Source: an uncultured Gammaproteobacteria bacterium (GTDB lineage: Bacteria > Patescibacteriota > Patescibacteriia > Magasanikbacterales > GWA2-37-8). Taken from it: a stretch of DNA of 64,000 nucleotides. This document shows, piece after piece, positions 19,405-64,000 of the stretch (positions within the stretch are counted from its first letter, which is position 1; each line of letters starts with the position of its first letter). A program made the position numbers and the translations under genes. Under the pieces are notes generated by a model. The model was not told where the DNA came from, did no database searches, and saw only the letters and a program-made list of their open reading frames with translations. The stretch covers positions 5,514 through 69,513 of the forward strand of contig CAZHNI010000001.1 of NCBI GenBank assembly GCA_964533715.1. The letters run 5' to 3'.

Positions 19405-19475
19405 GCGGGTATAGTATAGTGGTAATATGTAACCTTCCCAAGGTTAAGCGACGGGTTCGATTCCCGTTACCCGCT
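19405..19475 (+). tRNA. tRNA-Gly (anticodon CCC)
   Basis: Acceptor GCGGGTA/TACCCGC, anticodon stem TAACC/GGTTA with loop TTCCCAA, T-arm ACGGG-TTCGATT-CCCGT, discriminator U; CCA not encoded. Confidence 0.75.
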
Positions 19476-20004
19476 CATTAAAAATCCCCCGCAGTATGAG
19501 CGAGGGATTTTAGTTGTTTATTTTTTAAGACTCTTTGGTTTCATCCAGTAATTTTTACGACGGAATTTTTTTGTTTTTCGTGCCAAGGAGTGGGCTTTTT
19601 TAGTATTTTTTTTGGCGTGTTTTAAACGAGAGCGCAAGGCTGTGTTCATAAGATGATTATTTAAAAGTTTGGGTATAATAGCAGATTATCTTTAAAAATG
19701 CAAATTTTGCTTAGTCAAGCAAAAACTTTTCATTAAATTTTAAATTATTATTCGAGTAATTTAATTACCTAACCGTTGGTTGATACTCAGAATAGTACAC
19801 CTATAAAGTACACCTATACTTGACACCTGTAACAAATTGGTGTAGGCTTGTTTTGCCAAACTCCTGGCTTTTTTTGTTACCCAATTCGCCGCACCGCGCA
19901 TGTGGTGGGTAGGGAACAGGGGAACCACGGAGTTACAACCACGGGCCGCGCACGGCTGCGCGCGCCCACATCCCGCTACGCGAAAGGCGGGAGGAGGATT
20001 GACC

Positions 20005-21513
20005 ATGTTGCATCGCTGGTTCGTCACGATCGTGGCGTTCGCCTTGGCCCTGGGCCTCGGCAGCGCCGTCAACATCAACGTCAACAGCAACCGCCCCGTC
20101 CTCGGCGCCATCGTCGGCGTACTGGGTGAGGGGGTGGCGGCCGCGCAGGTGCCGACCAACTACCGGTTCTTCAACGGCACCGGCGTGAACGGCCAGCTCG
20201 GCCAGCCCTACACGCAGGGCGCTCAGTCGGCGCTCAAGGTGCGGATCGAGAAGGTGTGGCCCACCATCGCCAAGCGGCACCAGAATGCCCTGGAGTATTA
20301 TGGGGTAATGGCCAACACCAACTGGTTCAGGAACAACTCCGGTCCGCAAGGGGAGTACTGGTTCGTGGCGGGGATCTTCCGCCAGCTCACCAAGATCCCG
20401 CTGGACGACCGAAACAAGACAAACGAGGCACTGGTGGGAAAGATCTCATCGGATCCTGACTATGTCGACTCGCTGATGATCATGAACAAGACCGGCGCGC
20501 TCATCAGCGGTGGGTACGTGGGCGAGGTGCACGTCTATTTCGGCGATGTGAAGGGTGGGTGCACGCCGAACGCCCTGGCCTACTACTTCTCTCCCCCTGA
20601 CATTTCGGGGATGAAGGTAGTCGGAGTTGTGCTCTGCGGAGACGACGGCGTCCGGGTGGCCAACTTGCCAACCGACTTCGGTGGTTTCGATACTACCCTG
20701 GAAAGCATCTTCGTCCACGAGTTCGCGCATGCCGTCGACGACGTACACAAGGCAACCACAGGCAATGAGCTGAACATCTCGGATATCATGGAGATGGATC
20801 GGTCCTGCATCCGGGTCTACGGGTTGAAGGGGATCTTGGCGTTGGTGGGGAACTCGGCCTACGATCCGCTCACGTATCTCGATCTGCGAACCATCGCGGA
20901 TTGGTACCCGATCTGGGTGTCGGTGATCAACTACAATTACGATGCTTCGAAGCAGATACTGGTCGGGATGAACGTGGCGGGCGGGTCGTGCGGAGGTGTG
21001 CAAGACGATGTCGGGACGTGCAAGAACGGGCAGACCCCCGTTGCCGCTTGCGGCGGCCTCCCCATCGGCGACGCCGGCACCCCTACCGACGGGGGCATAG
21101 CACCCCTCGACCTCGGCGGCAGCTTCAGAACCCCTTGCACCTCCGACTCGCAGTGCGCCAGCAAGGTGTGCCAAGACGGCCTTTGCCGCAGCCCGTACTG
21201 CGGCAACGGAGTTTTGAACCGCGTGGGTGTCGGAGGAGGCTCCGGTGAGTCCGACATTGACTGCGGAGGGGAGGAATGCGGCAGGTGCGCCGATGGCAAG
21301 AAGTGCTTCGCGGCCACCGACTGCAAGTCCGGCGTGTGCACCGGCGGCAAGTGCGCGGGGGGCGGTGATGTCCAGGGCGGCTGCGATGTCGGCACCGGAC
21401 GCGGTGACCGCAACTGGGGCGCCATTGTGCTCCTGCTCGCTGTGCTCCTCATCTTTTCGTCGGCCATCGCCGCTTGGCGGCAGTTCGAACGGAAGCAAGG
21501 GCGTCGCACCTAG
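20005..21513 (+). CDS. secreted, C-terminally membrane-anchored zinc metalloprotease-like protein with a Cys-rich stalk
   Basis: RBS GGAGGAGG 8 nt upstream of ATG 20005. Signal peptide MLHRWFVTIVAFALALGLGSA. HEFAHAVDDVH, an HExxH motif with a third His at metzincin spacing. Repeated CxxGxC modules (CGNGVLN, CGGEECGRC, CKSGVCTGGKC), a C-terminal TM helix and a basic tail. Confidence 0.6.
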   Translation: MLHRWFVTIVAFALALGLGSAVNINVNSNRPVLGAIVGVLGEGVAAAQVPTNYRFFNGTGVNGQLGQPYTQGAQSALKVRIEKVWPTIAKRHQNALEYYGVMANTNWFRNNSGPQGEYWFVAGIFRQLTKIPLDDRNKTNEALVGKISSDPDYVDSLMIMNKTGALISGGYVGEVHVYFGDVKGGCTPNALAYYFSPPDISGMKVVGVVLCGDDGVRVANLPTDFGGFDTTLESIFVHEFAHAVDDVHKATTGNELNISDIMEMDRSCIRVYGLKGILALVGNSAYDPLTYLDLRTIADWYPIWVSVINYNYDASKQILVGMNVAGGSCGGVQDDVGTCKNGQTPVAACGGLPIGDAGTPTDGGIAPLDLGGSFRTPCTSDSQCASKVCQDGLCRSPYCGNGVLNRVGVGGGSGESDIDCGGEECGRCADGKKCFAATDCKSGVCTGGKCAGGGDVQGGCDVGTGRGDRNWGAIVLLLAVLLIFSSAIAAWRQFERKQGRRT

Positions 21514-21543
21514 TGCCCCCCACGTGAAGTAAAATCATCCGCA

Positions 21544-21590
21544 CCCCGGCCAACCCGGCCGCGTGCGCGGACGAGGTTGGGTTGGCCGGG
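21544..21590 (+). terminator. GC-rich hairpin at the 3' end of the island gene
   Basis: Perfect 11-bp stem CCGGCCAACCC / GGGTTGGCCGG; no T-run (high-GC style). Confidence 0.4.
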
Positions 21591-21668
21591 TAGGCGAGTA
21601 AAATAAAACTAAGAAAAAATGGAGGGGGAGACCGATCGACTCCTCAAATCGATCATCTACAAAAACAA

Positions 21669-25646: not shown

Positions 25647-26510
25647 ATGTATACGTCCGTAACAATTAAACAGTTGCACCACGCACTCCAAGCGCTTGAC
25701 CCATCAGCGCTTGTTTTGTTAGGGGGCAGTTATTTATATGACGAAGCGGTAGAGGAAAGTGATGTTGATTTTTATTTTATAATACCTTCATGGAAGATAT
25801 TTTTTTTAAAGAAATTTAAAAAAATAATTCAGAATTTAAAACAGCGTTTTTCTGGCGTGAATTTTAGTGTTATGATTGTGCCACAATGGCTTCGACGGCA
25901 TGGATACTATATTTATGGAAAAGATGTCAGCGGTAAAATTCATACATGGGAACTCCCAATTTCAATATTAATAAGGAATTGTCTTAAGCTGGCCTATTTT
26001 AATTATTTACGGTCAATGGTGGAACCAAAAAATAAAGAGAGAAATGTTCAGAAAGTAAAAAAGCAACTTGCGGTAGCAGAACTTGCCGCGCAAGGTAAGG
26101 TAGATTTTAAAGAACCAATTTTTTCGTGGAAATATATCAAACGACATTTGGTCTCGTCTGTCATTTCGACCGTAGCGACCAAAGGGAGCGAAGTGGAGAA
26201 ATCGCTTGACTGCAGTGACTCACAGATCAAGGGATTCCTCGACTGCGGCTTCGCCTTCGCTCGGAATGACAACGCGAATGACGGTCTACGGCAAGTGCAT
26301 GGACAATTCCTCCCATATTTTAATTTTTCCTTGTCAAATTATTTGCTTTACAATATTCGTTTTTTGCTCAAAGGCAACCCCTTGTTTCTATTTAGTAATC
26401 CTGATAAAATGGTGTTAGAAAAAATGGTTATTGGAATTGAGCACGAAGAAAAACTCCCAGAATTGTATAAAGAAATAAAAAGAATTGTTTTTCCTGTTAT
26501 TATTTTTTAA
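25647..26510 (+). CDS. nucleotidyltransferase-domain protein with an in-frame palindromic-element insertion
   Basis: LLGGSYLYDEAVEESDVDFYFI matches the pol-beta superfamily GS...DxD signature. Codons ~172-209 are encoded by repeat copy 26159-26271. Confidence 0.4.
   Translation: MYTSVTIKQLHHALQALDPSALVLLGGSYLYDEAVEESDVDFYFIIPSWKIFFLKKFKKIIQNLKQRFSGVNFSVMIVPQWLRRHGYYIYGKDVSGKIHTWELPISILIRNCLKLAYFNYLRSMVEPKNKERNVQKVKKQLAVAELAAQGKVDFKEPIFSWKYIKRHLVSSVISTVATKGSEVEKSLDCSDSQIKGFLDCGFAFARNDNANDGLRQVHGQFLPYFNFSLSNYLLYNIRFLLKGNPLFLFSNPDKMVLEKMVIGIEHEEKLPELYKEIKRIVFPVIIF
26159..26271. repeat. palindromic MITE-like element copy (TIR TGTCATTTCGACCG...CGCTCGGAATGACA), in frame in the nucleotidyltransferase gene
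   Basis: Terminal inverted repeats and internal sub-palindromes are shared with the other copies. Confidence 0.7.
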
Positions 26511-31214: not shown

Positions 31215-32165
31215 ATGATGATAGATACACACGCCCATGCGCACTTTAACGCCTATAAGGATGATATGGACGAAGTAATAGAGCGGAGCCTTGCTAGGGG
31301 TGCTGTTATTAATTTAGTTGGGACCCAAGCAGATACGAGCAAGCGGGCGGTTGAAGTCGCCGAAAAATATGACGGAGTATACGCCACAATTGGTCTTCAT
31401 CCAGAACATCTTTTTTCCAAGTGGGTTGACGAAGAAGAAACCTCTTTTCAATCGCGGGAAGAAAGTTTTGATTATGAGTACTACAAAAGTTTGGCGGTAA
31501 TGCCCAAAGTTATTGGCATAGGGGAGTGTGGGTTAGATTTTTACCGTATTCCCGAAGGTATGACCAAAGAGGCTATGCTCCCTAAACAGGCAGAAGTTTT
31601 TAGGCAGCATATTAATTTATCTCAAGAAACAAACTTGCCGCTGATAATTCATTGTCGTGAGGCGCATGAGGAGATGATTGCCATCCTGAACACGTTCGTT
31701 TCGCTCAGTGTAAACTCCGCGGAGCGTGGTGAAGGACCCCCTCAAAAGCAAGGGGATTATTCGGTCGTCCCGAGCAATTCGGGACTCCCTCAGAATGACA
31801 ATGCAAACAAAAAATTACGTGGCACGATGCACTGCTACACCAGCAGCTGGATTAATGCCCAAAAATATTTAGAAATGGGTTTTTACATTGGTTTTACCGG
31901 CGTTATTACATTTCCTCCCCAAAAAGCGAACCCGCAAGCCCAGGCGGATTTATTGGAAGTTGTTCGTAAGATGCCAGAGGACAGGATACTTTTGGAAACC
32001 GATTGCCCTTATTTATCACCAATTCCATATAGAGGAAAGCGAGGCGAGCCTTGGATGATTGAGGCAACAGCAGCAAAAATAGCGGAACTCCGCGGAATAA
32101 GTTTGGAAGAAACCCTAAGCGTAACAACAAAAAATGCGCGGAACCTTTTTCAGAAAATGGTTTAG
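31215..32165 (+). CDS. tatD: TatD-family metal-dependent hydrolase with an in-frame palindromic-element insertion
   Basis: IDTHAHAH, GECGLDFY, IIHCREAHEE, HCYTSSW and ETDCPYL motifs. About 35 extra residues (VSLSVNSAERGEGPPQKQGDYSVVPSNSGLPQNDNA) between the third and fourth metal-binding motifs are encoded by repeat copy 31697-31798. Confidence 0.7.
   Translation: MMIDTHAHAHFNAYKDDMDEVIERSLARGAVINLVGTQADTSKRAVEVAEKYDGVYATIGLHPEHLFSKWVDEEETSFQSREESFDYEYYKSLAVMPKVIGIGECGLDFYRIPEGMTKEAMLPKQAEVFRQHINLSQETNLPLIIHCREAHEEMIAILNTFVSLSVNSAERGEGPPQKQGDYSVVPSNSGLPQNDNANKKLRGTMHCYTSSWINAQKYLEMGFYIGFTGVITFPPQKANPQAQADLLEVVRKMPEDRILLETDCPYLSPIPYRGKRGEPWMIEATAAKIAELRGISLEETLSVTTKNARNLFQKMV
31697..31798. 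repeat. degenerate palindromic element copy, in frame in tatD
   Basis: Right TIR CCCTCAGAATGACA, left arm degenerate (CGTTTCGCTCAGTG), inner palindrome GTCCCGAGcaatTCGGGAC. Confidence 0.55.
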
Positions 32166-32503: not shown

Positions 32504-33286
32504 ATGTCCCAATTGATTTTACCACCACTCGGCGCTGAAACCATGTTTCATATTGGTTCGATACCTGTTACCAACACCATCGTTAACACTTGGATAGCGA
32601 TGGTTATTTTTTTAATCTTTGGCTTGGCGCTTCGCAAACGCGTATCGCTCCGACCAGGAAAATTGCAAAATTATTGCGAATATTTTTTGGATATTTTACT
32701 CGGATATTTTGACCAAGTAACTGGTAGCCGAAAAAAGACAATCCAATTTCTTCCTGTTGTTGGTTCAATTTTTTTCTTTATTTTACTTTCTAACTGGCTT
32801 GGGCTTCTCCCTGGAACCGGCAGCATTCTTAAGGGCCACGAACCATTGCTGCGTCCGGCTAATACCGATTTGAATTTAACCATTGCTATGGCCGCAGTGG
32901 CGGTTATTTCATCGCATATTTTTGGTTTTTTATCGGTAGGATTTTTTACACATATTGGTAAATTTGTTCAAATCAAAAATTTTATAAAAAGTATCCCCAA
33001 AGGTCCGGTTGCAATTTTTCAAGCAATTGTGGAATTTGCAGTTGGGCTAATTGAAATTGTGAGTGAACTTGCCAAAGTAATGTCGCTTTCACTTCGTCTT
33101 TTTGGTAATATTTTTGCTGGTGAAGTTTTAATGACGGTGATGCTTAGTTTGGTAGCGGCGGTGGTTCCGGTTCCATTTATGCTTTTGGAGTTGTTGGTCG
33201 GCATTATTCAAGCTAGTGTGTTTGCCATACTTACGTTAGTATATATGTCTGTTGCCAGCGCTGAACCACACGGAGCGGAACACTAA
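32504..33286 (+). CDS. atpB: F0F1 ATP synthase subunit a
   Basis: Five-six TM helices with the conserved Arg in LSLSLRLFGNIFAGEV. Confidence 0.85.
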   Translation: MSQLILPPLGAETMFHIGSIPVTNTIVNTWIAMVIFLIFGLALRKRVSLRPGKLQNYCEYFLDILLGYFDQVTGSRKKTIQFLPVVGSIFFFILLSNWLGLLPGTGSILKGHEPLLRPANTDLNLTIAMAAVAVISSHIFGFLSVGFFTHIGKFVQIKNFIKSIPKGPVAIFQAIVEFAVGLIEIVSELAKVMSLSLRLFGNIFAGEVLMTVMLSLVAAVVPVPFMLLELLVGIIQASVFAILTLVYMSVASAEPHGAEH

Positions 33287-33323
33287 AACATAAAAACACA
33301 AGAACATTAAAACACAATAAGCC

Positions 33324-33356
33324 GTTTTAATGTTTTAATGTTTTAATGTTTTAATG
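33324..33356. repeat. tandem octamer (TTTTAATG)x4 preceded by an 11-bp perfect hairpin in the atpB-atpE spacer
   Basis: AACATTAAAAC...GTTTTAATGTT stem, then GTTTTAATG repeated four times. Confidence 0.7.
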
Positions 33357-33650
33357 ATATCTACCCTGAATCGTATAAGCCGTACATTCGGCGATTCAAC
33401 GGAGATGGATATCAAGAAAGTTAATTCTATGGATCACGAATCACTCGTGACGATTATGAAGGGTGCCACGATGGCGCTCGGCGGCGTTGTTCCCGCCATA
33501 TCAATTGGTCGTATCGTAACCAAGGCTATGGAGTCTATTGGCCGTAATCCGGAATCAGCCGGTAAATTGTTCGTTCCCATGCTTCTTGGTGCTGCTTTTG
33601 CCGAAGCTATCGCTATTTACGCTCTTGTAGTTGTATTTACTCTCAAATAG
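33354..33650 (+). CDS. atpE: F0F1 ATP synthase subunit c (probable true start near 33429, MDHESL..., giving ~73 aa)
   Basis: Two-helix hairpin with GRNPE loop and conserved carboxylate in AAFAEAIAIYALVV. Confidence 0.8.
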   Translation: MISTLNRISRTFGDSTEMDIKKVNSMDHESLVTIMKGATMALGGVVPAISIGRIVTKAMESIGRNPESAGKLFVPMLLGAAFAEAIAIYALVVVFTLK

Positions 33651-33657
33651 CTCAACT

Positions 33658-33682
33658 CACCGGGCCACTTGTTGGCCTGGTG
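33658..33682 (+). promoter_or_regulatory. stem-loop between atpE and atpF (attenuator-like)
   Basis: CACCGGGCCA-cttgt-TGGCCTGGTG hairpin with no immediate T-run. Confidence 0.3.
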
Positions 33683-33701
33683 AACTTGGATTATTTTAAA
33701 C

Positions 33702-33824
33702 TGTCATTCTGAGCCTGCCTCCTGCATGCGCAGGTATGGCGCAGACAGGTGAAATGAAGAATCTTCCTATTATGAAGATCCTTCCCCAAAGGGGTCCCTT
33801 TGGGACGCTCTGCTCAGGATGACA
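33702..33824. repeat. palindromic element copy, intergenic atpE-atpF
   Basis: TIR TGTCATTCTGAGC...GCTCAGGATGACA. Carries the CCTGCCTCCTGCATGCGCAGG and GAAGAATCTTCCTATTATGAAGATCCTTC modules. Confidence 0.75.
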
Positions 33825-33835
33825 AAATAGAATCT

Positions 33836-34381
33836 ATGCAATTTATTGACACTGTTTACGCTGCCGAAATCGCCGAGTCAGCGCAGGAAGGCCTCTTAAC
33901 CTCCCTTGGTATCAATGGGACGTTATTTATTTTTCAACTCGTCAACTTTGCTATCGTGGCAACAATTATTTGGTTTTTAATTTTAAAACCACTTACAAAA
34001 AAAATGACTGAGCGTCAAAAGATGATTGACGACAGTATCGATAATTCAAAAAAAATTCAAGAAACACTTCAGCACAGTGAACAAAAATATCAGGAACGCA
34101 TTGACCAGGCGAAAGTGGAATATAATAAAATTTTGGAAAAAGCCACTGTTGATGCGGTAGCGACAACAGATGCCATGAAAGTAAAGGCTAAGCAAGAGAT
34201 TGAAATGTTGGTAGATCAGGCAAAAAGAAATATTAAAATTGAAAAAGAAGAAATGGTATCAGCTTTAAAAAATGAAACCGCTGGATTTATTGTAATGGCA
34301 TTAGAAAAAATTCTGGGAGAAAAAGTTGATAGTAAAAAAGATAAAGAAATGATTGAGGAAATGATTAAAAAGTTAAAATAA
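33836..34381 (+). CDS. atpF: F0F1 ATP synthase subunit b
   Basis: N-terminal TM helix (LFIFQLVNFAIVATIIWFLIL) followed by a long charged helix. Start set at ATG 33836, because tracked ORF 33800.. begins inside an intergenic palindromic element. Confidence 0.75.
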   Translation: MQFIDTVYAAEIAESAQEGLLTSLGINGTLFIFQLVNFAIVATIIWFLILKPLTKKMTERQKMIDDSIDNSKKIQETLQHSEQKYQERIDQAKVEYNKILEKATVDAVATTDAMKVKAKQEIEMLVDQAKRNIKIEKEEMVSALKNETAGFIVMALEKILGEKVDSKKDKEMIEEMIKKLK

Positions 34382-34382
34382 T

Positions 34383-34775
34383 ATGCCAAAAAAGGCACAG
34401 GATATTAAAAAAATAGCAGCCGCTCTATACGAGGTTACTAAAGATTTAAGCGGTCAGGAGCTCGGCAAAGCCTTGCAAGGTTTTGTGTCTCTTTTGGTAA
34501 GAAAAAATTTGTTTGGTCAGGCTGAAAAAATAATTTCGGCATTTGTAGCCTATGCAAAAAAACAAGAATGTATTCTAGAGATTGATGTAACGACTGCTCG
34601 AGAAATTGAAACGAAATTGTTGCAGGCAATCCAGAACGCTTTTGGTAAAAATGTAGAGTCTACAACAAACGTGGATGATTCCCTTGTCGGTGGTTTTGTA
34701 GTTAAAACAAAGGATACTGTTTTTGATGCCAGCTTAAAAACACAACTACAAAAATTAAAACAAAGCTTGATTTAA
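34383..34775 (+). CDS. atpH: F0F1 ATP synthase subunit delta (short form)
   Basis: Position between atpF and atpA and an OSCP-like C-terminal part (LVGGFVVKTKDTVFDASLKTQL). Confidence 0.65.
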   Translation: MPKKAQDIKKIAAALYEVTKDLSGQELGKALQGFVSLLVRKNLFGQAEKIISAFVAYAKKQECILEIDVTTAREIETKLLQAIQNAFGKNVESTTNVDDSLVGGFVVKTKDTVFDASLKTQLQKLKQSLI

Positions 34776-34776
34776 T

Positions 34777-34884
34777 TGTCATTGCGAGGAGCAAAGCGAC
34801 GAAGCAATCCCCCTGAGTTCAGTGCTCCTGAAAACAAGGGGATCGCCACGTCAGCCGGTGCGAACCGGCTTCCTCGCGATGATA
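34777..34884. repeat. palindromic element copy, intergenic atpH-atpA
   Basis: TIR TGTCATTGCGAGG...CCTCGCGATGATA; shares the GCAATCCCCCTGA core with the rlmN copy. Confidence 0.7.
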
Positions 34885-34904
34885 GCTTTAATCTAATAAA
34901 ACCT

Positions 34905-36392
34905 ATGTCCATCAACTCAATTGTCGAAGAACTCAGAAAGAATATTAGTAAATTTGAAAAGCAGGTCGAAGTGGAAGAAATTGGAACCGTTACCGAGGTA
35001 GGGGATGGTATTGCTCGTGTGAACGGCCTTACCAATTGCCAGGCGAGCGAAATGTTGGAATTCCCGGATAACACTATCGGCGTGGCCTTAAACTTGGATG
35101 AAGATTCCGTTGGCGCGGTTGTACTTGGTGAGTTTAAACATATTAAAGAAGGAGATACCGTAAAACGTACCGGCCGTATTTTATCGGTACCGGTTGGGGA
35201 GGAGCTTATTGGCCGCGTTGTTAACCCGCTTGGTGTTCCTATTGATGGTGGGGCTAACCTTAATAGCAAAAAATTCTATCCAATTGAAAAAATTGCTCCT
35301 GGTGTTATGACTCGTGAGGGCGTCAGCCAGCCAGTGCAAACTGGTATTAAAGCCATCGATGCCATGATCCCAATTGGTCGCGGTCAACGCGAGCTTATTA
35401 TTGGTGATCGTCAAACCGGCAAAACCGCTGTGGCAATTGATACAATTATTAACCAAAAAGGTCAGAACATGATTTGTGTGTACGTGGCAGTTGGGCAAAA
35501 GGAGGCAAAAATCGCCCGTATTATGGCAAAACTTAAAGAGGCTGGTGCCATGGATTATACTATTATTGTTTCGGCCGCCGCTTCTGACCCAGCCGCTCTG
35601 CAATATATTGCCCCGTATGCTGGTGTGGCTATGGCCGAATATTTTATGGACCAAGGTAAAGATGTGCTTTGTGTTTATGATGATCTTTCTAAACAAGCCG
35701 TTGCCTACCGTGAAATTTCACTCTTGCTGCGTCGCCCACCGGGTCGTGAAGCTTATCCTGGTGATGTTTTCTATTTGCACTCACGCCTCTTGGAACGTGC
35801 TTGTAGACGTAATAAAGAAGCTGGTGGCGGGTCAATTACCGCTCTTCCAATTATAGAAACTCAGGCCGGTGACGTTACCGCCTACATTCCAACCAACGTT
35901 ATTTCCATTACTGATGGTCAAATTTTCTTAGAATCAGATTTGTTTTATCGTGGTATTCGCCCGGCGGTAAACGTTGGTATCTCTGTGTCGCGTGTTGGCT
36001 CTTCCGCTCAAATTAAACCAATGAAAAAAGTAGCCGGTAAACTTAAGTTAAGTCTAGCCCAGTTTCGTGAACTTGAAGCTTTTTCTCAGTTTTCAAGCGA
36101 TCTTGACCCGGAAACAAAAAAACAAATTGATCTTGGTGTGCGCATGGTAGAAATTCTTAAACAACCACAGTATCAACCAATGGGTGTGGCTCATCAGGTT
36201 GCTATTATTTACGCGGTATCAAACGGATACGCCAATGAAATTGAGGTGCAAAATATGAAAGAATGGGAAGATAAATTTCACATTTTCTTTGAAAAAACTC
36301 GCCAGTCACTCTTAGAAAAAATTAGCAAAGGAGAGTGGGATGAGAAAATTGAAGGTGAGTTAAAAGAAGCGATTGCCGAATACAAAAAATAA
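34905..36392 (+). CDS. atpA: F0F1 ATP synthase subunit alpha
   Basis: Walker A GDRQTGKT and alpha-subunit signature regions. Start set at ATG 34905 ([10 protein letters not shown]...). The 43 upstream codons of tracked ORF 34776.. are an intergenic palindromic element read in frame. Confidence 0.9.
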
Positions 36393-36714
36393 ATATTTTA
36401 TGAAAAAGCTCCTCAGTCTAGAGGATATCAAATTAAGAATAGATCAAATTATCGATGAGCTTAGCTCCGGGGCAATTTCGATTAGAGAAATTGAACCTAT
36501 CCATGAAAAATTGCAGCAAGCTAGGGCGGATTATTTAAGGATTGTTGAAGAAATAAAAGCAGATGATCCAGAAATTTTAAATCATAATGCTACATTGGTT
36601 AGGGTGTACATTGAGATTGGCAGGCTCTATGACGCGGCTCTTTCGTTGATAAGAAAAATTGAACGAGAGGGAATAGGTGAATTTCGGTCTGAAGGTAGGG
36701 GATCTAAAAATTAG
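36373..36714 (+). CDS. hypothetical coiled-coil protein inserted between atpA and atpG
   Basis: ORF with coding-like composition overlapping the atpA end; no recognisable family. Confidence 0.3.
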
Positions 36715-36716
36715 AT

Positions 36717-37739
36717 ATGGCAGTAAGTACCAAAACAATTAAACGCCGCATCAAATCAATTTCCAACACCAAAAAAATTACTAAGGCCATGGAGATGATT
36801 AGTGCGGTAAAAATGCGCCGAGCGGTAGCCAATGTTTTGGCTACCCGAAATTATGCTAGCCTGGCTTGGGAAATGCTTAAAGAAATTTCCGAGTACACGC
36901 ACGATGGCCACCATGCACTCTTGCAAAAAAGGCCTGTTAAAAAAATCGGTCTCATTTTAATTACCAGTAACCGAGGGTTGGCTGGCGGTTTTAGCAGCCG
37001 GTTATTGCAGGAAGTAGACAGCTACATAAAAAAAATCACTCATCAAACTGTCATTCCGACGACACGTGCGCTCCGCTCAGTGCAGGCTCCAGAGGAATCT
37101 CTGGCTCATTCGAATGACGGACAGAGATCCCTCGTCGGCGCGAGCCTCACTCGGGATGACAAAGTGCAAATTGGCATTGAAGCCGACATCATTCTTACTG
37201 GTAAGCGCGGCAAAAAAATTTATCATCGTTTTGGGCACACTGTGGTGGCCGAATTTGATAAAGTAGATCTTACCACCAGAATTGAAGAAATTTTACCCAT
37301 GGCCCAGTTGGCGGTAAAAGAATTTGTTGCCGGAACATACGACCAAATTGTAGTGGCGTACATGCATTTTAAATCCGCAATTGAACAAGTGGCCACAGTA
37401 AAACAAATTTTGCCGCTTACGAAAGATTCAATTAAAGAACTGGCCGCCAAAGAAGCTGATGACACTGAAGAAATAGAAGAGAGCACATTTTTGTTTGAGC
37501 CAAACCCGGCGCTGGTGCTTGATGTACTCTTGCCACGTTTGGTTGAAATGCAAATGTATCAGGCAATTTTGGAATCGGACGCCTCCGAGCACAGCGCTCG
37601 CATGATGGCTATGCGAAACGCCAGTGATTCGGCCAGCGATATGATTAAAGAGTTGCAAAACAGCTTTAACAAAGCACGCCAAGCAGCTATTACCCAAGAA
37701 ATTAGTGAAATTGTGGGTGGTGCAGCGGCCCTGGAGTAA
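36717..37739 (+). CDS. atpG: F0F1 ATP synthase subunit gamma with an in-frame palindromic-element insertion
   Basis: Conserved N-terminus (TKTIKRRIKSISNTKKITKAMEMISAVKMRRA) and C-terminus (MMAMRNASDSA...ITQEISEIVGGAAALE). About 38 extra residues (TVIPTTRALRSV...TRDDK) are encoded by repeat copy 37049-37161. Confidence 0.85.
   Translation: MAVSTKTIKRRIKSISNTKKITKAMEMISAVKMRRAVANVLATRNYASLAWEMLKEISEYTHDGHHALLQKRPVKKIGLILITSNRGLAGGFSSRLLQEVDSYIKKITHQTVIPTTRALRSVQAPEESLAHSNDGQRSLVGASLTRDDKVQIGIEADIILTGKRGKKIYHRFGHTVVAEFDKVDLTTRIEEILPMAQLAVKEFVAGTYDQIVVAYMHFKSAIEQVATVKQILPLTKDSIKELAAKEADDTEEIEESTFLFEPNPALVLDVLLPRLVEMQMYQAILESDASEHSARMMAMRNASDSASDMIKELQNSFNKARQAAITQEISEIVGGAAALE
37049..37161. repeat. 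palindromic element copy, in frame in atpG
   Basis: TIR TGTCATTCCGACG...CTCGGGATGACA; inner GAGGAATCTCTGG...GGACAGAGATCC module. Confidence 0.75.
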
Positions 37740-37772
37740 TTTAGTTTCTAGTAATCTAAAAAACTAAATTGT

Positions 37773-38159
37773 ATGGAGGAAAGATATCGTGATTTTACAG
37801 AGCTTGAAGTTTGGCAAAAAGCGCATGAACTAAGATTAAAAGTACGGATTCTTTGCAAATTTCTACCATCTGAAGAAAAATATGGCCTGATCTCACAAAT
37901 TTTAAGATCGTCCGCTTCAGTCGGTGCTAATATAGCTGAAGGTCATGGTAGATTTCACTATCAAGAAAATATCCAATATTGCAGACAAGCAAGAGGATCG
38001 CTAGATGAAACTCGTGATCATCTAATCTATATACGTGACGCTGATTTAATAAGAAAAGTGAGTAGTTTGGAATATTTAGTTAATCTATGTTTACAAATAA
38101 AGGCTTTGTTAAATGGTTATATCGGTTATTTAAAAAAATGTAAACAAGGGCAAGACTAA
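37773..38159 (+). CDS. four-helix-bundle protein (23S rRNA intervening-sequence protein family)
   Basis: Characteristic LEVWQKAHEL...SASVGANIAEGHGR...DETRDHL pattern of the four-helix-bundle/IVS protein family; AT-richer than its neighbours. Confidence 0.6.
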   Translation: MEERYRDFTELEVWQKAHELRLKVRILCKFLPSEEKYGLISQILRSSASVGANIAEGHGRFHYQENIQYCRQARGSLDETRDHLIYIRDADLIRKVSSLEYLVNLCLQIKALLNGYIGYLKKCKQGQD

Positions 38160-38193
38160 TTTTTACTAACTTTCGAATAAACTAATATACTAA

Positions 38194-39573
<1,380 letters not shown>

Positions 39574-39638
39574 CAACATACAAGATACATGGAATAAAAT
39601 ATAATTTGTATATTTTTCCATGTATATTGAATATTTTT

Positions 39639-40049
39639 ATGATGTTTAAAATTGTTACACCCGAACGTCAAGTCTTCACCGATGAAGTTTCCCAAGTTAC
39701 TATGATGACCACCATGGGTGAAATTAGTATTTTACCGCATCACATTCCGCTCGTGGCTAATTTGGTTCCCGGAGAAATTAGATACAAAAAAAATAACGAG
39801 GAATTATCCATTGCTGTTTCGGGAGGTTTTGCCGAAGTCCGACCAGATGGGTCGGTTGTTATTCTCGCAGATACTGCCGAGCACGCACATGAAATTGACT
39901 TGGCTCGTGCCGAAGAAGCCAAATTACGCGCGGAAAAACTTATGTCCGAAGCGCGCAATAAAGATGAAGTGGATTATACGGCCCTCGCAGTAAAACTAGA
40001 AAAAGAATTAGCAAGACTCCGAGTAGGAAAAAAGTATCGCAAAGTCTAA
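39639..40049 (+). CDS. atpC: F0F1 ATP synthase subunit epsilon
   Basis: Beta-sandwich N-terminus (KIVTPERQVF...) and a C-terminal helical hairpin. Start set at ATG 39639. Confidence 0.75.
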   Translation: MMFKIVTPERQVFTDEVSQVTMMTTMGEISILPHHIPLVANLVPGEIRYKKNNEELSIAVSGGFAEVRPDGSVVILADTAEHAHEIDLARAEEAKLRAEKLMSEARNKDEVDYTALAVKLEKELARLRVGKKYRKV

Positions 40050-40138: not shown

Positions 40139-40162
40139 CCCCTGATTCCAGGGGCATTTTTT
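40139..40162 (+). terminator. rho-independent terminator of the atp operon
   Basis: CCCCTG-attc-CAGGGG hairpin followed by CATTTTTTG. Confidence 0.6.
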
Positions 40163-42005: not shown

Positions 42006-42070
42006 TGTCATTCCGAGCGAGGCCAAAGGCCGGCGAGAAATCTCTGTCTCAATCAAATGGACAGAGATTT
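42006..42070. repeat. truncated palindromic element copy (left TIR plus AAATCTCTGTCtcaatcaaatgGACAGAGATTT module)
   Basis: TGTCATTCCGAGCGAGGCC left end identical to the helicase copies; right TIR missing. Confidence 0.65.
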
Positions 42071-42075
42071 TTTTC

Positions 42076-42122: not shown

Positions 42123-42187
42123 TGTCATTCTGAGTGAAACGAAGAATCCTCCTATTATGAAGATCCTTCGCTCCGCTCAGGATGACA
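42123..42187. repeat. short palindromic element copy immediately upstream of, and overlapping, the rlmN start region
   Basis: TGTCATTCTGAGTG...CGCTCAGGATGACA with the GAAGAATCCTCCTATTATGAAGATCCTTC module. Confidence 0.75.
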
Positions 42188-42199
42188 GACGATTATCAC

Positions 42200-43411
42200 A
42201 TGACTAAAATTGTCAAAACAATAGAATCCATTCTAGCTAATGAACCCGCCTTCCGCATTAAGCAAATTGAAAAGGCGTGGTTTGATGTGTCCTTAAATTC
42301 GTACGATGAAATTACTACCTTGCCAAAAGAGCTTCGCGAAAAATTAAAAGATATTCCCTGGTTAAGTTTGGAAGTCCACACCGAATTAAAAAGCAAAATG
42401 GATAACACGCGCAAATACCTTTTTAAACTAGGGGATGGGAATTTGATTGAGATGGTCTTGATGGGTCGTATGTCATTGCGAGCCCCGAAGGGGCGCGGCA
42501 ATCCCCCTGATTTGATCGAGGACGTTGACGAGGAGATTGCTTCGTCAGTCGCTGCGACGCTCCTTTCTCGCAATGACACATCGGCGATTGGCCGCGACAC
42601 CAGTGGCGATCGTTACACCATCTGTATTTCATCTCAAGCCGGGTGCCCCATGCGGTGTGCGTTTTGCGCCACGAGCAAAAGCGGTTTTAAGCGTAATCTT
42701 ACCGCCGAAGAAATTATAGATCAATATCGTTTCGCCCAGCGACTACTGGCCAAAGAAAATAATCGGGTGAATAATATTGTGCTCATGGGCCAAGGGGAAC
42801 CGCTGGTAAACTATGAGAACGTAAAAAAAGCGATCAATACTATTTTAAAAAACAGCGACATCGGCTCTACCAAAATAACTCTATCCACTGTTGGTTATGT
42901 GCCCGCCATGGAAAAAATGATAACCGACACCGACTTTCCGCCGGTGCGTTTTGCCTTGTCACTTCACAGCGCTATAGAAGAATCGCGTAAAAAAATTATT
43001 CCAACGCACAAACCAGGGTTTTTGGAATGGCTCGTGAAGTGGGGGAATGCCTACCACGAAAAATTTGGCAACCGCACCCATTTTATTGGTTTTGAGTACA
43101 TTATGTTAAGTGGGGTAAATGATGATGAAGCACATTTGAAGGCACTGATAAAATTGTGCAAACGTTTTCCTATCGTTCGCGTTAACCTCATTCCGTACAA
43201 CACCACCAACGATGCCGGTGAGGTTGATGAAATTAATAAATTGGAAGAACAAATGGGCTCTAATTATCGCATTTTTACCCGCACCCCGCACGAGCTTATT
43301 GAACATTGGCACGAGAGTCTTATGGATGCGGGAATTACGTCCACTATCCGTTATTCGCAGGGGCAGGATATTGCGGCGGCGTGTGGGCAACTCCGGAATA
43401 AAGAAAAATAG
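42200..43411 (+). CDS. rlmN: radical SAM rRNA/tRNA adenosine-C2 methyltransferase RlmN with an in-frame palindromic-element insertion
   Basis: Radical SAM CxxxCxxC (CPMRCAFC), GQGEPL, and a C-terminal catalytic Cys region. About 36 extra residues (MSLRAPKGRGNPPDLIEDVDEEIASSVAATLLSRND) upstream of the cluster are encoded by repeat copy 42471-42578. Start set at ATG 42200, because tracked start 42182 lies inside a repeat. Confidence 0.75.
   Translation: MTKIVKTIESILANEPAFRIKQIEKAWFDVSLNSYDEITTLPKELREKLKDIPWLSLEVHTELKSKMDNTRKYLFKLGDGNLIEMVLMGRMSLRAPKGRGNPPDLIEDVDEEIASSVAATLLSRNDTSAIGRDTSGDRYTICISSQAGCPMRCAFCATSKSGFKRNLTAEEIIDQYRFAQRLLAKENNRVNNIVLMGQGEPLVNYENVKKAINTILKNSDIGSTKITLSTVGYVPAMEKMITDTDFPPVRFALSLHSAIEESRKKIIPTHKPGFLEWLVKWGNAYHEKFGNRTHFIGFEYIMLSGVNDDEAHLKALIKLCKRFPIVRVNLIPYNTTNDAGEVDEINKLEEQMGSNYRIFTRTPHELIEHWHESLMDAGITSTIRYSQGQDIAAACGQLRNKEK
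42471..42578. repeat. palindromic element copy, in frame in rlmN (108 bp, 36 codons)
   Basis: TIR TGTCATTGCGAGC...CTCGCAATGACA. Confidence 0.75.
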
Positions 43412-44340: not shown

Positions 44341-44370
44341 CAGTGATTCTTCACTGCGCTCAGAATGACA
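44341..44370. repeat. partial palindromic element (right end CGCTCAGAATGACA plus CAGTGAttcttCACTG hairpin) at the helicase start
   Basis: Right TIR matches the family consensus. Confidence 0.45.
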
Positions 44371-44376
44371 GAAAAT

Positions 44377-47300
44377 ATGGGAAAATACTCTTTAAACAAG
44401 GCGCAACGTGAAGCCGTGGAGTATACCAGCGGCCCGCTTTTGATTGTGGCTGGGGCGGGGACGGGAAAGACGACGGTGATTACAAGTAAAATTTGTCGGT
44501 TGATTGAGGAAAAACTCGCCAAACCCGAGGAAATTTTGGCATTAACGTTTACCGAAAAAGCGGCGGCGGAAATGCAGGATAGGGTAGATGAGATAACCAA
44601 TATTGGCTACGCCGATCTCCACATTTCTACCTTCCACGCCTTTTGTCAAAAAATTCTGGAGCGGCATGCCATTGATATCGGCCTCTCCAATTCGTTTAAA
44701 CTCCTCACCGACACGGCGGGCTGGGTTTTGCTCCACAAAAATTTGGATAAATTTAATTTGGATTACTACCGACCGCTCGGCAACCCTACTAAACACATTC
44801 ACGAATTTTTAAAACATTTTTCTAAGTGCAAAGATGAATTAATTACACCGCAGGAATATTTGGAGTATGCGGAAGGTTTAAAATTGAACAATGGACGAGA
44901 CCCCACCCTGCCCTCCCCTTTGCGAAGGAGAGGGGACAAAACCCCCTCCTCTGCAGAGGAGGGGGTAGGGGGAGATCTCGCGGAGGTCGAGCGGCTTACG
45001 GAAATTGCCAACGCGTATCACACGTATAATCAACTGCTTTTGGACAACGCGCTATTTGATTTTGGCGATTTGCTTTTTTATACCGTCAAATTATTTCGCG
45101 AACGGCCGAATGTGCTCAAAATGTTCCAGAATAAATATAAATATATTTTGGTGGATGAATTTCAGGATGTGAACTATTCGCAGTATGAATTAATTAAACT
45201 CCTGGCGGACGCCTCATTGTCATTTCGACCGGAGCCCCAAAGGGGCGAAGTGGAGAAATCCCTGTCTCAATCACGAACGGACAGAGATTCCCTGCCTGCA
45301 CCATGCCTGCGCATGCAGGAGGCAGGCTCGTCGGCCTCCGGCCTCGCTCGGAATGACAATATTGTTGGTCCCAACCTCACCGTGGTAGGGGATGATGACC
45401 AAAGTATTTATGCCTTTCGCGGCGCCAGTGTGGCGAATATTCTAAGGTTTAAAGATGATTATCCAACAGCCAAAGAAGTGGTGCTATCGGAAAATTTTCG
45501 TTCCGGCCAAAAGATTTTGGATGTGGCGTATGAGTCTATTCAGAACAATAACCCGGATCGGTTGGAAGTGAAGTTAAAGATAGACAAGCGACTAAAGGCC
45601 AAAAGGCCATCTGTCATTTCGACGACGAAGGAGAAATCTCTGGCTCACCAAACGATGAATAGAGATTCCCTGCCTGCACCATGCCTGCGCATGCAGGAGG
45701 CAGGCTCGTCGGCCTCCGGCCTCGCTCGGAATGACAATGGGGATGGCGTGGTGATACATTTGCACAAACCAACCGTCGAAGACGAGGTAGCGGCTGTTTT
45801 GGACGAAATTACGCGTATTAAAACGGTTACCGAAGGCGTAACCTGGGATGATTTTGCTATTTTGGTTCGTGCCAACAATCACGCGGATGCGTTTATAAAC
45901 CAACTGCAAACACGAGGCATTCCATACGAATTTTTGGCTTCTAGCGGATTGTATCGTCAACCGATTATTTTGGATTGCATAAACTTTTTTAAACTCCTGA
46001 ATAATTATCACGAATCCAGCGCAATTTATCGACTGCTCTGTTTACCTTTTTTTGAATTTAGAGAAAATGATTTACAAAAAATTACCTTTAATGCCAAGCG
46101 CAAAAGTATTTCGTATTACGAAGCACTCAAACGCGCTCCCGAATTTGATGTGTCGCAAGCAGGGATTAGCGTGTGTGCTAAATTGGTGGAAGTAATTCAT
46201 GCCGGCCTCCAGAGTATGCGTTACGAAAAGCCATCGGTGGTGCTGTATTCATTTTTGGAAAATAGTGGTTACCTCAAATACTTAACACACCAGGAAAACG
46301 AAGGTAAGGGCGATGTGATTCGCCAAATTCATTATTTAAAACAGTTTTTTGATTACATTGCGCAGTATGAATCGGTAACGCCTGAGGCGCATGTGGTCGG
46401 GTTTATAGAGCATTTTATGATGGTAGTGGACGCGGGTGATAAGGGAAGCCTCTACCAGCCGAGCGACACACCGGATTCCGTAAATATTTTGACGGTGCAC
46501 GCCTCCAAGGGCTTGGAATTTCGCTATGTGTTTGTAGTGAATTTGGTAGAAGATCGGTTTCCATCACGCAGTCGCAGTGACGCGCTGGAAATTCCGCTTG
46601 AACTCGTGAAAGAGCAATTGCCGGAAGGCGATAGCCATATTCAAGAAGAACGACGATTGTTTTATGTGGCCATGACGCGCGCCAAGGAACGTTTGTATTT
46701 TACCAGCGCGAGCGATTATGGTGGTACGCGCACAAAAAAGATTAGCCGATTTTTGGCGGAGTTAGATTTTGGTTCTGTCATTCTGAACGGAGCAAAGCGC
46801 AGTGAAGAATCCCTGTCTGCGCAGGCAGGTCTGTCTCAATCACCAACCGACGGACAGGGATCCTTCGCTTCGCTCAGGATGACAAAAAAAGTAAATGAAA
46901 TGAGTGAGCGAGTGTACGAAACGCCAAAAACTTTTTCATTCTCACAATTGCGATCGTACGAAACCTGTCCATATCAATACAAACTGGCGCATATTTTGCA
47001 TATCCCCATGAAGGGCAGTGCGAGTTTTAGTTTTGGTTCCAGCATGCACAACACACTCCAAGCGTTTTATGAACGGGTAATTGAGCTTAACAGTTCCAAA
47101 CAAGTCTCACTTTTTGACACACCCAAACCATCTGTCATCCCGAGCGTAGTCGAGGGATCCCTTTCGCCAACGTCAAGGGATTCCTCCACTCCGCTACGCT
47201 CCGGTCGGAATGACAAAGCGGTGAAAGTACCAGAATTTGAGGAGCTCTTAAAAATGTACGACGCTAAGTGGATTTCGGATTGGTTTAAGGATAAACGCCA

Positions 47301-60569: not shown

Positions 60570-61292
60570 ATGACTACTGAATTAAGTATAGCAGACATTA
60601 AAAAAGAACTCAATGCACAGATTAAGGATCCGGAAACGCTTAAATCTTTGTTGGTTACTACCTTCAAAGGTTTAACCGCGGACACAGCCAAACAAGCCAT
60701 GTTAGAAGGGATGATGCGCGGTTTTACTTTCAAGGACTTTCTCCAGAAAAATGTTTATGCCGTGCCGTTCGGTCAATCTTACAGCCTTGTTACGTCGATT
60801 GATAATGCCAGAAGAATAGGCATGCGCAATGATGTGGTAGGCAAAACAGCCCCAATCTACGAGGAAGAGGTTATTACTACCGGCGAGAAAAAGGTAAACA
60901 AAATCGTTTCGTGCACTGTTACAGTAAAACGCAAAATTAAGGACTACATAGGTGATTTTACAGCGACGGTATTCTTTGATGAGTATAACACGGGACGCAA
61001 CCAATGGGCTTCCAAGCCGCGCACCATGATCGCTAAAGTTGCCGAGATGCACGCCCTGCGCATGGCTTGCCCGGAAGACGCCTCGCAGATGTACCTTGAG
61101 GAAGAATACGAAAAAGAAACAATCGTTGAAGAAGAGATATTTAATCTTGAGGAGCACAAATTAAAATTAGAAGCCTGTAAAAATCTTGAAGAAGTAAAAA
61201 CAGTTTGGGCCTCTTTACCGGCTAAAGCTAAAGGCGAGCTGTTTACACTCAAAGAAGAAATGAAAAAAAAATATGAAAGTCCTAAAGTTTAA
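60570..61292 (+). CDS. recT: RecT-family single-strand annealing protein
   Basis: RecT core including W..KPRTMIAKVAEMHALRMACPED, matching the RecT W-x-P-x-M-x-x-K-x-A motif. Confidence 0.65.
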   Translation: MTTELSIADIKKELNAQIKDPETLKSLLVTTFKGLTADTAKQAMLEGMMRGFTFKDFLQKNVYAVPFGQSYSLVTSIDNARRIGMRNDVVGKTAPIYEEEVITTGEKKVNKIVSCTVTVKRKIKDYIGDFTATVFFDEYNTGRNQWASKPRTMIAKVAEMHALRMACPEDASQMYLEEEYEKETIVEEEIFNLEEHKLKLEACKNLEEVKTVWASLPAKAKGELFTLKEEMKKKYESPKV

Positions 61293-61875
61293 TAACGAGG
61301 AAGCGTGGCTAGAAGCCCGCAAAACTAAAATAACCGGTTCGCGCCTCAAGGATATTGTCGTCAAACGCGGTACAGGGCAAAAAATAGGCTATTACGAGCT
61401 TATTGCCGAGCGTTTGGCGCTTCCACCTAACGGACAAGACCCAATGGACAGAGGGCACGAATTAGAGAAAGAAGCGATGGAGCGGTTTACTAAGGAAATG
61501 GGAAAAAAGGTTGATGGGAGTTTGGTAATTTGGACGCGAGAGGACAACGAAAGTATTGCAATTTCACCAGATGGTTTTATTGGTAAAACCGAGGCCGTTG
61601 AGGTGAAGTGTTTATCATCGGCCCGGCACATTGAAGCGTTTTTAACGCAACAGATACCAGACGAATATCACTTGCAAGTCATTCAATACTTCATCGTAAA
61701 CGACAAACTCAAAACTCTATATTTCTGTTTCTACGATCCGCGTTTATCGGTTAAAGATTTTTTCTATATCACAGTTGAGCGCGAACAAATTAAGGAAGAA
61801 GTTGATAATTATTTGGAGTATCAAAAAAAGATTCTGCAAGAGGTAAACGACATAGTGAACAAGTTGACGTTCTAA
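61273..61875 (+). CDS. YqaJ-like viral recombinase exonuclease (lambda Exo-like PD-(D/E)xK)
   Basis: N-terminal EAWLEARKTKITGSRLKDIV (the YqaJ QGSxEWLxxRxGxxTAS pattern) and a D...EVK catalytic core; overlaps the recT stop. Confidence 0.65.
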   Translation: MKVLKFNNEEAWLEARKTKITGSRLKDIVVKRGTGQKIGYYELIAERLALPPNGQDPMDRGHELEKEAMERFTKEMGKKVDGSLVIWTREDNESIAISPDGFIGKTEAVEVKCLSSARHIEAFLTQQIPDEYHLQVIQYFIVNDKLKTLYFCFYDPRLSVKDFFYITVEREQIKEEVDNYLEYQKKILQEVNDIVNKLTF

Positions 61876-62962: not shown

Positions 62963-62963
62963 T

Positions 62964-63317: not shown

Positions 63318-63318
63318 T

Positions 63319-63684: not shown

Positions 63685-63688
63685 ATAT

Positions 63689-63937: not shown

Positions 63938-64000
63938 CCCTTAATTAGATTGAGGTATGGAGAAAATAATTTTAGATTTGTGTGGCGGTACAGGGTCGTG

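Follow-up and report, generated by a model that had tools for sequence, protein, structure and literature searches.

Introduction

[quoted passage not shown] REP doublets that form hairpins and are mobilised by RAYT tyrosine transposases make up the REPINs and bacterial interspersed mosaic elements (BIMEs) (Bertels & Rainey 2011, PMC3116915), and in SBW25 14 of 1067 REPs overlapped genes (PMC3116915). The malE-malF intercistronic REP and other protective 3' structures serve as stabilisers (PMC5927463), and the Rickettsia palindromic elements (RPEs) go back to Ogata et al. 2000, cited here through PMC10969869. Here we describe a palindromic repeat with GTCAT and ATGAC termini in a 64-kb stretch of contig CAZHNI010000001.1 (the window), which comes from a Patescibacterium of the candidate phyla radiation (CPR; genome 41% G+C) and contains an F1Fo ATP-synthase (atp) operon. 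Two copies of the repeat lie in this operon, copy A between atpE and atpF and copy B between atpH and atpA. The element is REPIN/BIME-like by its architecture and RPE-like by its behaviour in this genome, and on the defining features that were tested it is a member of neither group.

We consider it probable that copies A and B are tolerated selfish insertions of a mobile repeat that is non-autonomous and forms hairpins. What they demonstrably affect is the annotation, through false N-terminal extensions of atpF and atpA, and no result presented here shows regulation of the atp operon by the copies. The two spacer copies alone would be ordinary; the GTCAT doublet, its spread across phyla and its dense in-frame colonisation of essential CPR genes are moderately surprising.

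Two lineage-specific insertions in the atp operon

The genes of the operon were assigned by Pfam and lie on the + strand, as do all large genes of the window (Table 1). The best relatives by AtpA were Candidatus Magasanikbacteria and other Patescibacteria metagenome-assembled genomes (MAGs), with up to 85% identity. The first-pass annotation of this DNA had placed repeat copies at 33702-33824 and 34777-34884, and both were found there and belong to the same family. The spacer between atpE and atpF (c to b) measures 185 nt here and 62 nt without copy A, compared to 59-77 nt in the closest relatives and a median of 78 nt in the relatives as a whole, while the spacer between atpH and atpA (delta to alpha) measures 129 nt here and 21 nt without copy B, compared to 2-24 nt in the closest relatives and a median of 11 nt. 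Neither insertion is present in the closest relatives (83-85% AtpA identity). Since the element-free relatives have shorter spacers, the copies are insertions that lengthened the spacers, and the sequence comparison indicates that they are recent and lineage-specific, not ancestral sequence. The first-pass annotation had named repeat-free relatives with equal spacers as the way in which its claim could fail; the relatives' spacers are much shorter, and the claim stands.

The copies do occupy the spacers as annotated, except that copy A does not fill the whole c to b spacer, of which the first 51 nt are native. The spacer of the closest relatives consists of a small GC hairpin and an AT-rich tail that includes 'attatttta', and the window keeps the hairpin (33657-33683), whose position is conserved in relatives, followed by ..ggattattttaaa and then by copy A.

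Both copies are richer in G+C than the genome (52% for copy A and 57% for copy B), and both were predicted to fold very stably as RNA, as the first-pass annotation had expected of hairpins between cistrons. The folding energy was −58.0 kcal/mol in each case (z −5.9 for copy A and −7.7 for copy B), no shuffled sequence matched it, and the opposite strands folded equally well or better because the copies are palindromes at the DNA level. When folded in their mRNA context, each copy formed a closed domain, the native atpE hairpin persisted, and the start codons of atpF and atpA remained unpaired in AU-rich sequence.

In copy A the left half-unit (about 33702-33763) is closed by ATTCT at 33706-33710 pairing with AGAAT at 33758-33762, the central loop reads CTATTAT, and the right half-unit (about 33774-33824) is closed by ATCCT at 33778-33782 pairing with AGGAT at 33816-33820; two small nested hairpins lie at 33714-33750 and 33785-33804. 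Copy B begins 2 nt past the atpH stop codon, and its left half-unit (34777-34812; ATTGC at 34781 with GCAAT at 34804) encloses a GCAAAGC mini-hairpin at 34791, while its right half-unit (34838-34884; ATCGC at 34842 with GCGAT at 34876) encloses an AGCCGGT..ACCGGCT hairpin at 34853-34870 and ends in a 3' terminus decayed to ATGATA. The two copies are best explained as independent insertions of different subfamilies, of the CTGAG type and the GCGAG type.

Strong GC-rich hairpins inside an operon might act as internal transcription terminators or attenuators that cut read-through into atpF and atpA. Intrinsic terminators carry a U-tract, and neither copy has one (no T-run) on its 3' side; the terminator and promoter scan called neither copy terminator-like or promoter-like, although it did find a terminator-like site past atpC at 40139-40154. 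In addition, it would be pointless to attenuate alpha, gamma and beta, since the cell needs at least as much of each as of delta, and copies of the family that lie inside open reading frames (ORFs) would terminate essential genes. The sequence thus largely refutes termination, which we regard as highly improbable. A search of Rfam at the gathering score returned only tRNAs over the whole window, and at E ≤ 10 it returned nothing credible over 33250-34950.

False gene starts created by the insertions

The mechanically called ORF of atpF starts at TTG 33800 and that of atpA at TTG 34776, directly abutting the atpH stop codon. The first-pass annotation had put both starts inside the repeats, which is accurate for the former, while the latter lies one base 5' of copy B. 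Its further claim that these starts create false N-terminal extensions was upheld by homologues, since the closest AtpF homologues align from residue 1 of the version starting at ATG 33836 and the AtpA homologues at all 80 of 80 related loci align from residues 1-6 of the version starting at ATG 34905. Judged from these alignments, the TTG 33800 start of atpF is an artefact.

As the atpA frame runs through all of copy B without a stop, a start at TTG 34776 would add 43 residues that are translated copy B, and AtpA could in principle begin there, or at an internal codon, by termination-reinitiation at the atpH stop. The abutting TTG, the absence of stops, the right-end frame ..GAT GAT AGC, which is read as in the copies inside ORFs, and the tolerance of this genome for in-frame copies in essential enzymes all fit such a start. 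However, all 80 homologues have their start where ATG 34905 lies, and the putative start is buried in a 16-bp stem. The open frame itself is unremarkable because composition alone leaves about 40% of the family's sense frames open. The alpha N-terminus of F1Fo contacts delta/OSCP, and an extension of 43 residues there would likely be costly; copy A, moreover, cannot be translated into atpF because it has stop codons in all three sense frames. Translation of copy B as part of AtpA therefore seems improbable to us.

Two further spacers of the operon contain palindromes of a different kind. The atpB to atpE spacer (33281-33356) is an AT-rich palindrome with four tandem GTTTTAAT units, and the six-frame atpE ORF begins inside it at ATG 33354; the true start is likely ATG 33429, which gives a 73-residue c subunit, so that this would be a third false N-terminal extension in the operon. 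The atpD to atpC spacer (39571-39639) is an AT-rich, near-perfect palindrome with 34-nt arms (79% complementary) that reaches from the atpD stop to the atpC start region, and the atpC ORF was called from TTG 39606, upstream of the likely start ATG 39642.

The element is an inverted doublet of REP-like units

The GTCAT and ATGAC termini are invariant in the family, whose members are 65-141 nt long with terminal (outer) stems of 13-16 bp. The terminal stem covaries, with 55 double-change cells compared to 24 ± 4 after shuffling (none of 500 shuffles reached 55) and 4-18 when the partner was slid. Each of the 10 intact window copies has two halves with perfect self-complementarity, while nine of the 10 show a mismatch in the long-range stems, outer and inner. 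Likewise, among 57 environmental copies with differing halves, the halves are perfect in 81% and 79%, and the inner long-range stem in 7%. The unit is thus a REP-like imperfect palindrome, and two such units, inverted relative to each other and separated by a hypervariable loop, make up the element, with the pattern YY-GTC-ATTNN...NNAAT-C, variable loop, G-ATYNN...NNRAT-GAC-RR, in which the palindrome extends outward as YY-GTCAT...ATGAC-RR. The outer stem has T.G on the sense strand and the inner stem A.C because both reflect one compensated difference between the two half-units. Reading the sense-strand G.U wobble as a sign of a strand-specific RNA was rejected for that reason and because relatives carry both orientations.

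Half-units often enclose a mini-hairpin of the GCGAAGC or GCAAAGC type or a longer nested hairpin, and adding one nested hairpin to each half of the minimal 65-nt copy at 42123 yields copy A. The copies at 45218 and 45612 share an identical 76-nt 3' part, a sequence match indicating that halves recombine. No target-site duplication was detected among 228 copies, whose flanks were as similar to each other as expected from shuffling (k = 2-8, offsets 0-3).

Copy A contains, at 33714-33734, a 21-nt sub-module, CCTGCCTCCTGCATGCGCAGG, that recurs in the other orientation in two helicase copies (45306-45326 and 45684-45704). Half-units thus seem to have a smaller palindromic module nested inside them. 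Similar CCTGCC..GGCAGG hairpins are present in the 46776 copy and in the locus L065 (L numbers denote related or environmental loci). On the metagenome contig Ga0207055_1035 (L252, 3969-5019), about nine GCGAG-type copies form a tandem array with a 121-nt period, made up of an 88-nt element and a conserved 33-nt linker, which recalls BIME-2 arrays.

In-frame copies elsewhere in the window

The terminal motif GTCATTSYGAG, with up to one mismatch allowed, occurred 21 times in the window compared to 2.2 ± 1.3 times in 100 shuffles, none of which reached 21. By inspection and alignment, the 64 kb contain 13 copies of the family, 11 full-length and two partial (Table 1), and eight of the 13 are read through in frame inside ORFs, including atpG of the same operon. 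All eight have the right end read as ..RAT GAC A.., so that the TGA within ATGACA is avoided. One copy only, that at 47133, has the opposite orientation.

These in-frame copies are clean insertions when compared to AtpG orthologues and to TatD and PcrA structures. The AtpG insertion, which would yield for example the predicted tryptic peptide SVQAPEESLAHSNDGQR, lies in a variable loop and is missing from the closest orthologues; in the TatD-family DNase, query residues 159-199 (41 residues) face six residues of PDB 2gzx, and in the helicase-nuclease, query residues 283-336, encoded by the 45218 copy, face three residues of PcrA. Searches of the element-encoded peptides against Pfam and NCBIfam returned nothing. 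Excision or translational bypass of the copies inside ORFs was considered and rejected, since every one is in frame and free of stops, a state for which there would be no need if the copies were removed.

False starts arise at two more genes. The terminal ATGAC of the 42123 copy provides the called start ATG 42182 of the RlmN-like ORF, whose true start is likely ATG 42200, and that of the half-unit at 44345 provides the called start ATG 44365 of the helicase-nuclease ORF, whose true start is likely ATG 44377.

Table 1. Genes and repeat copies of the window, with the atp spacers occupied by the family in related loci
Feature	Position	Strand	Remarks
atpB	32504-33286	+	Pfam
atpE	about 33429-33650	+	Pfam
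Native GC-rich hairpin	33657-33683	+	TCACCGGGCCACTTGTTGGCCTGGTGA; directly 3' of atpE, separate from the element
Copy A	33702-33824	+	123 nt; atpE to atpF spacer; ends TGTCATTCTGAGC...GCTCAGGATGACA
atpF (b subunit)	33836-34381	+	Pfam; start ATG 33836 backed by homologues
atpH	34383-34775	+	Pfam
Copy B	34777-34884	+	108 nt; atpH to atpA spacer; ends TGTCATTGCGAGG...CCTCGCGATGATA
atpA (alpha subunit)	34905-36392	+	Pfam; start ATG 34905 backed by homologues
Orphan ORF	36373-36714	+	between atpA and atpG
atpG	36717-37739	+	Pfam
23S-IVS-protein / four-helix-bundle gene	37773-38159		between atpG and atpD
atpD	38206-39573	+	Pfam
atpC	about 39642-40049	+	Pfam
Copy in nucleotidyltransferase-domain ORF 25647-26510	26159..26271	+	in frame
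Copy in TatD-family DNase	31703..31800	+	in frame; older copy, degenerate left end
Copy in atpG	37049..37161	+	in frame; 41-residue insertion ..VIPTTRALRSVQAPEESLAHSNDGQRSLVGASLTRDD..
Half copy (left half only)	42006..42075	+	intergenic
Minimal 65-nt copy	42123..42187	+	core and loop as copy A
Copy in radical-SAM (RlmN-like) ORF 42182-43411	42471..42578	+	in frame, upstream of radical-SAM domain
Right half-unit only	44345..44370	+	
Copy in UvrD/PD-(D/E)XK helicase-nuclease	45218..45358	+	in frame, directly before helicase motif III
Copy in UvrD/PD-(D/E)XK helicase	45612..45736	+	in frame; fills gap relative to PcrA
Copy in UvrD/PD-(D/E)XK helicase	46776..46884	+	in frame, between UvrD_C and PD-(D/E)XK domains
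Copy in UvrD/PD-(D/E)XK helicase	47133..47215	-	in frame, within PD-(D/E)XK region
L003			atp spacer occupied: b to delta
L019			atp spacers occupied: c to b, b to delta, gamma to beta
L027			atp spacer occupied: alpha to gamma
L037			atp spacer occupied: gamma to beta
L024, L077			atp spacer occupied: delta to alpha

The family in relatives and in other bacteria

A strict detector of the family, which gave 0-2 hits on decoys, gave 17 hits in 0.91 Mb of relatives, 15 of them genuine. The same detector found eight of the window copies and missed the others because of their degenerate ends. The window carries about one copy per 5 kb and the relatives about one per 50 kb, a roughly ten-fold difference. 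In the 80 relatives all genuine copies are intergenic, with AT-rich, stop-containing loops.

Outside the relatives, alphaproteobacterial plasmids of Methylosinus and Methylocystis have sites with 94-97% identity to the left module of copy B. The site in Methylosinus is 80 nt long, lies between convergent genes and shares the architecture of the element; for copy A, a BLAST search of plasmids gave no match. Viral and metagenome contigs were scanned for the pattern, with at least 120 loci found in each set, on contigs of 30%-72% G+C. Among the 232 environmental copies listed, some lie in frame inside real proteins: L211 has one within the Topoisom_bac domain of a topoisomerase I, L251 has one in an O-antigen-ligase-like membrane protein, and others are in phage proteins, with the typical reading VIPSEARNL...RND. 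Some bridge adjacent genes without a stop codon. Their recurrent neighbours are phage or gene transfer agent (GTA) structural genes only. At the environmental loci L283, L250 and L267, the downstream gene starts at or just past the terminal ATG of the element.

[quoted passage not shown] The strings 'HCEERSDEAIQ' and 'LRFARNDG' are what we take to be familiar nuisance strings in spurious ORFs, and the repeat has probably already been seen informally.

Comparison with described repeats

The element resembles REPINs and BIMEs in that it is an inverted doublet of imperfectly palindromic units with a variable spacer between them, forms a long hairpin as single-stranded DNA or mRNA with compensatory stem changes, has half types that can be combined, can occur in tandem arrays (L252), leaves no target-site duplication and is mostly intergenic in relatives. 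It differs from them in its GTCAT/ATGAC termini, where REPs have a GTAG-type head, and in that no RAYT was found among the window ORFs (by inspection) or the neighbours of the listed environmental copies. Furthermore, it crosses phyla (CPR, Alphaproteobacteria and phage contigs), whereas a REPIN population is lineage-specific and vertically inherited, and most of its copies in this genome are inside genes, whereas REPs are almost wholly extragenic.

According to PMC10969869, RPEs are likewise palindromic repeats of 100-150 nt that sit in frame and without stops in unrelated conserved genes of a reduced genome as well as between genes, with insertions in fold-compatible loops. RPEs are restricted to Rickettsia and have a conserved peptide reading, in contrast to the element described here, which has a variable left-end frame and a hypervariable loop and belongs to a pan-bacterial family. 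As the host is a Patescibacterium, the element is an RPE analogue at most.

Correia elements (Correia repeat enclosed elements, CREE) of Neisseria, the terminal stems of which can be cut by RNase III (PMC10969869), and ERIC sequences are comparable as co-transcribed, MITE-like palindromes within operons. However, Correia elements have 26-bp terminal inverted repeats, TA target duplications, IHF sites and promoter-like ends, while the element in this different host has outer stems of 13-16 bp, no duplication and no promoter-like hit. Terminal inverted repeats and small size are also shared with classical MITEs, but flanking target-site duplications are absent, so that the element is not a classical DDE-type MITE such as Correia. 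No candidate for a parent insertion sequence came to light on inspection of the window ORFs or among the genes that recur within 1.5 kb of the listed copies, and no dedicated search for gene-sized elements with these termini was made.

Selfish insertion weighed against a role in atp mRNA

If the atp copies are selfish insertions, the repeat would probably be mobilised in trans through a single-stranded hairpin intermediate and without target duplication, by analogy with REP doublets. This gene-dense CPR genome offers almost no free intergenic space, and therefore the surviving copies would be those in operon spacers or those in frame and stop-free in protein loops, as with RPEs. The atp copies would be tolerated because each folds into a closed domain, which would leave untouched both the native hairpin of atpE and the AU-rich sequence around the atpF and atpA starts. 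If the mRNA is affected at all, be it by a barrier to 3'-exonucleases, an RNase III site or a loosened delta-alpha coupling, this would be a by-product and not the cause of their presence.

Several observations weigh against selfish insertion. A mobilising gene was not recognised among the 70 window ORFs, which were examined by inspection only, and no transposase recurred within 1.5 kb of the 232 listed environmental copies. No same-species contig with an empty-site allele was found by exact AtpH and AtpD look-ups or by a metagenome scan with AtpH. With neither a mobilising enzyme nor an empty-site allele, we infer mobility from distribution. In the relatives, family copies are present in atp spacers at 10 loci and in other gaps at three, an enrichment per gap with an odds ratio of 4.0 (p = 0.03) in which copies within a genome are non-independent. 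Moreover, structure is stronger in atp gaps of 40 nt or more than in the other co-directional gaps (median z −3.3 vs −1.7, p = 1.6e-4), and unrelated palindromes fill the delta to alpha spacer of the close relatives L001 and L003. The enrichment, the structure and the unrelated palindromes could reflect selection for intercistronic hairpins, and they fit equally well a tolerance filter by which only compact, signal-free, self-folding inserts survive in an essential, tightly packed operon.

Selection of this kind would make the hairpins cis-acting elements of the atp mRNA, either barriers to 3'-exonucleases as in malE-malF or RNase III sites as in Correia elements, so that differing half-lives of the atpB-E, atpF-H and atpA-C segments would help to set the subunit ratios. 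Published precedents exist for both (PMC5927463, PMC10969869), and a stable intercistronic hairpin could, as in malE-malF, keep out 3'->5' exonucleases and thereby stabilise what lies upstream. The very stable, autonomous folds adjoin cistron boundaries, 80% of the relatives' c to b spacers have a structure of −15 kcal/mol or stronger, and, among close relatives, three or more palindrome families with no relation to each other have independently colonised the delta to alpha junction. On the other hand, both insertions are lineage-specific additions, not conserved structures, and the conserved hairpin past atpE is native and present without the element; it is this native hairpin that, as far as can be read from its sequence, fits the malE-malF protective model. 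The delta to alpha junction is ancestrally tight, so that a hairpin there is sporadic and not conserved, and only 20% of the relatives' spacers at this junction have structure of the above strength. The orientation of the relatives' atp-spacer copies with respect to transcription is mixed (about six forward to 5-6 reverse), the family also lands in coding sequence and at unrelated loci, and what is conserved is the half-unit pattern, not the long mRNA hairpin. Stabilising delta (one per complex) over alpha (three) would contradict the 1:3 stoichiometry, and the enrichment test is a weak one, as its copies are not independent of each other and atp was the basis on which its loci were chosen. 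Taken together, we regard selected mRNA elements as unlikely, and the suggestion of the first-pass annotation that the copies could modulate coupling or stoichiometry was not supported as the reason for their presence, given their lineage specificity, the mixed orientation, the native conserved hairpin and the contrary 1:3 logic. An effect of the atp copies on mRNA processing or stability is possible. The broader proposal that the GTCAT...ATGAC doublet is an undescribed, pan-bacterial REPIN-like replicator that spreads horizontally (being common on phage and GTA-like contigs), has evolved or been filtered to be translatable and so colonises coding sequence of gene-dense CPR genomes in frame at about one copy per 5 kb, and has its hairpins, like those of unrelated palindromes, repeatedly retained between atp cistrons of Patescibacteria as mRNA processing or stability elements, appears unlikely as a whole.

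Tolerated selfish insertion thus remains our preferred reading, and its practical consequence concerns annotation. The element systematically corrupts gene calls: in the window atpF, atpA, the RlmN-like gene and the helicase all receive false starts, and at least five proteins carry inserts of 27-47 residues; as the family is abundant in metagenomes, the same miscalls are to be expected in many MAGs. It also joins REP-doublet architecture with RPE-style in-frame colonisation of essential genes, which are usually treated separately, in a CPR genome and in a family that crosses phylum boundaries. This makes it a tractable case for the movement of hairpin repeats, the tolerance of proteins and recruitment by operon spacers. 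Within the atp operon, the conserved regulatory candidate is the small native hairpin past atpE and not the repeats.

Neighbouring features

A second, unrelated type of cassette seems to use atp spacers. The 23S-rRNA intervening-sequence (IVS)-protein gene at 37773-38159 (PF05635, TIGR02436) is flanked by AT-rich inverted repeats at 37740-37772 and 38160-38205, and a link between it and the element was rejected because these flanks are its own and not GTCAT ends. The gene is present at the same gamma to beta position in two close relatives (L003, 5036-5404; L079, 2654-3028; 66-71% identity), and a distant IVS-protein gene lies in the c to b spacer of L034 (4480-4695). In L003, gene-less AT-rich inverted repeats with the same words as around its IVS-protein gene fill the delta to alpha spacer (2565-2637). 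The cassette and this gene-less derivative look like a second mobile cassette in atp spacers. In the closest relative (L001, 5814-6000) the delta to alpha spacer contains a different, 187-nt palindrome (−69 kcal/mol, z −10.5). Inserts of 300-450 nt are present at the alpha to gamma junction in several relatives as well; in the window this junction has an orphan ORF (36373-36714) that encodes 113 helix-rich residues and overlaps the end of atpA by 20 nt; it matches nothing in Pfam or NCBIfam, and the loci of the 80 relatives lack a counterpart.

Elsewhere in the window, a 58% G+C island at about 19900-21600 lies just 3' of a tRNA (19405-19475), is followed by an inverted repeat at 21545-21590 and has overlapping ORFs on both strands. 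Its 537-residue ORF has no family match and Rfam gave no hit at E ≤ 1; the island is either foreign DNA or a large structured RNA. At about 60570-63940, phage-like genes were recognised by eye (RecT-like, YqaJ-like exonuclease, replication-protein-like and small HNH-like), and this region is possibly a prophage remnant.

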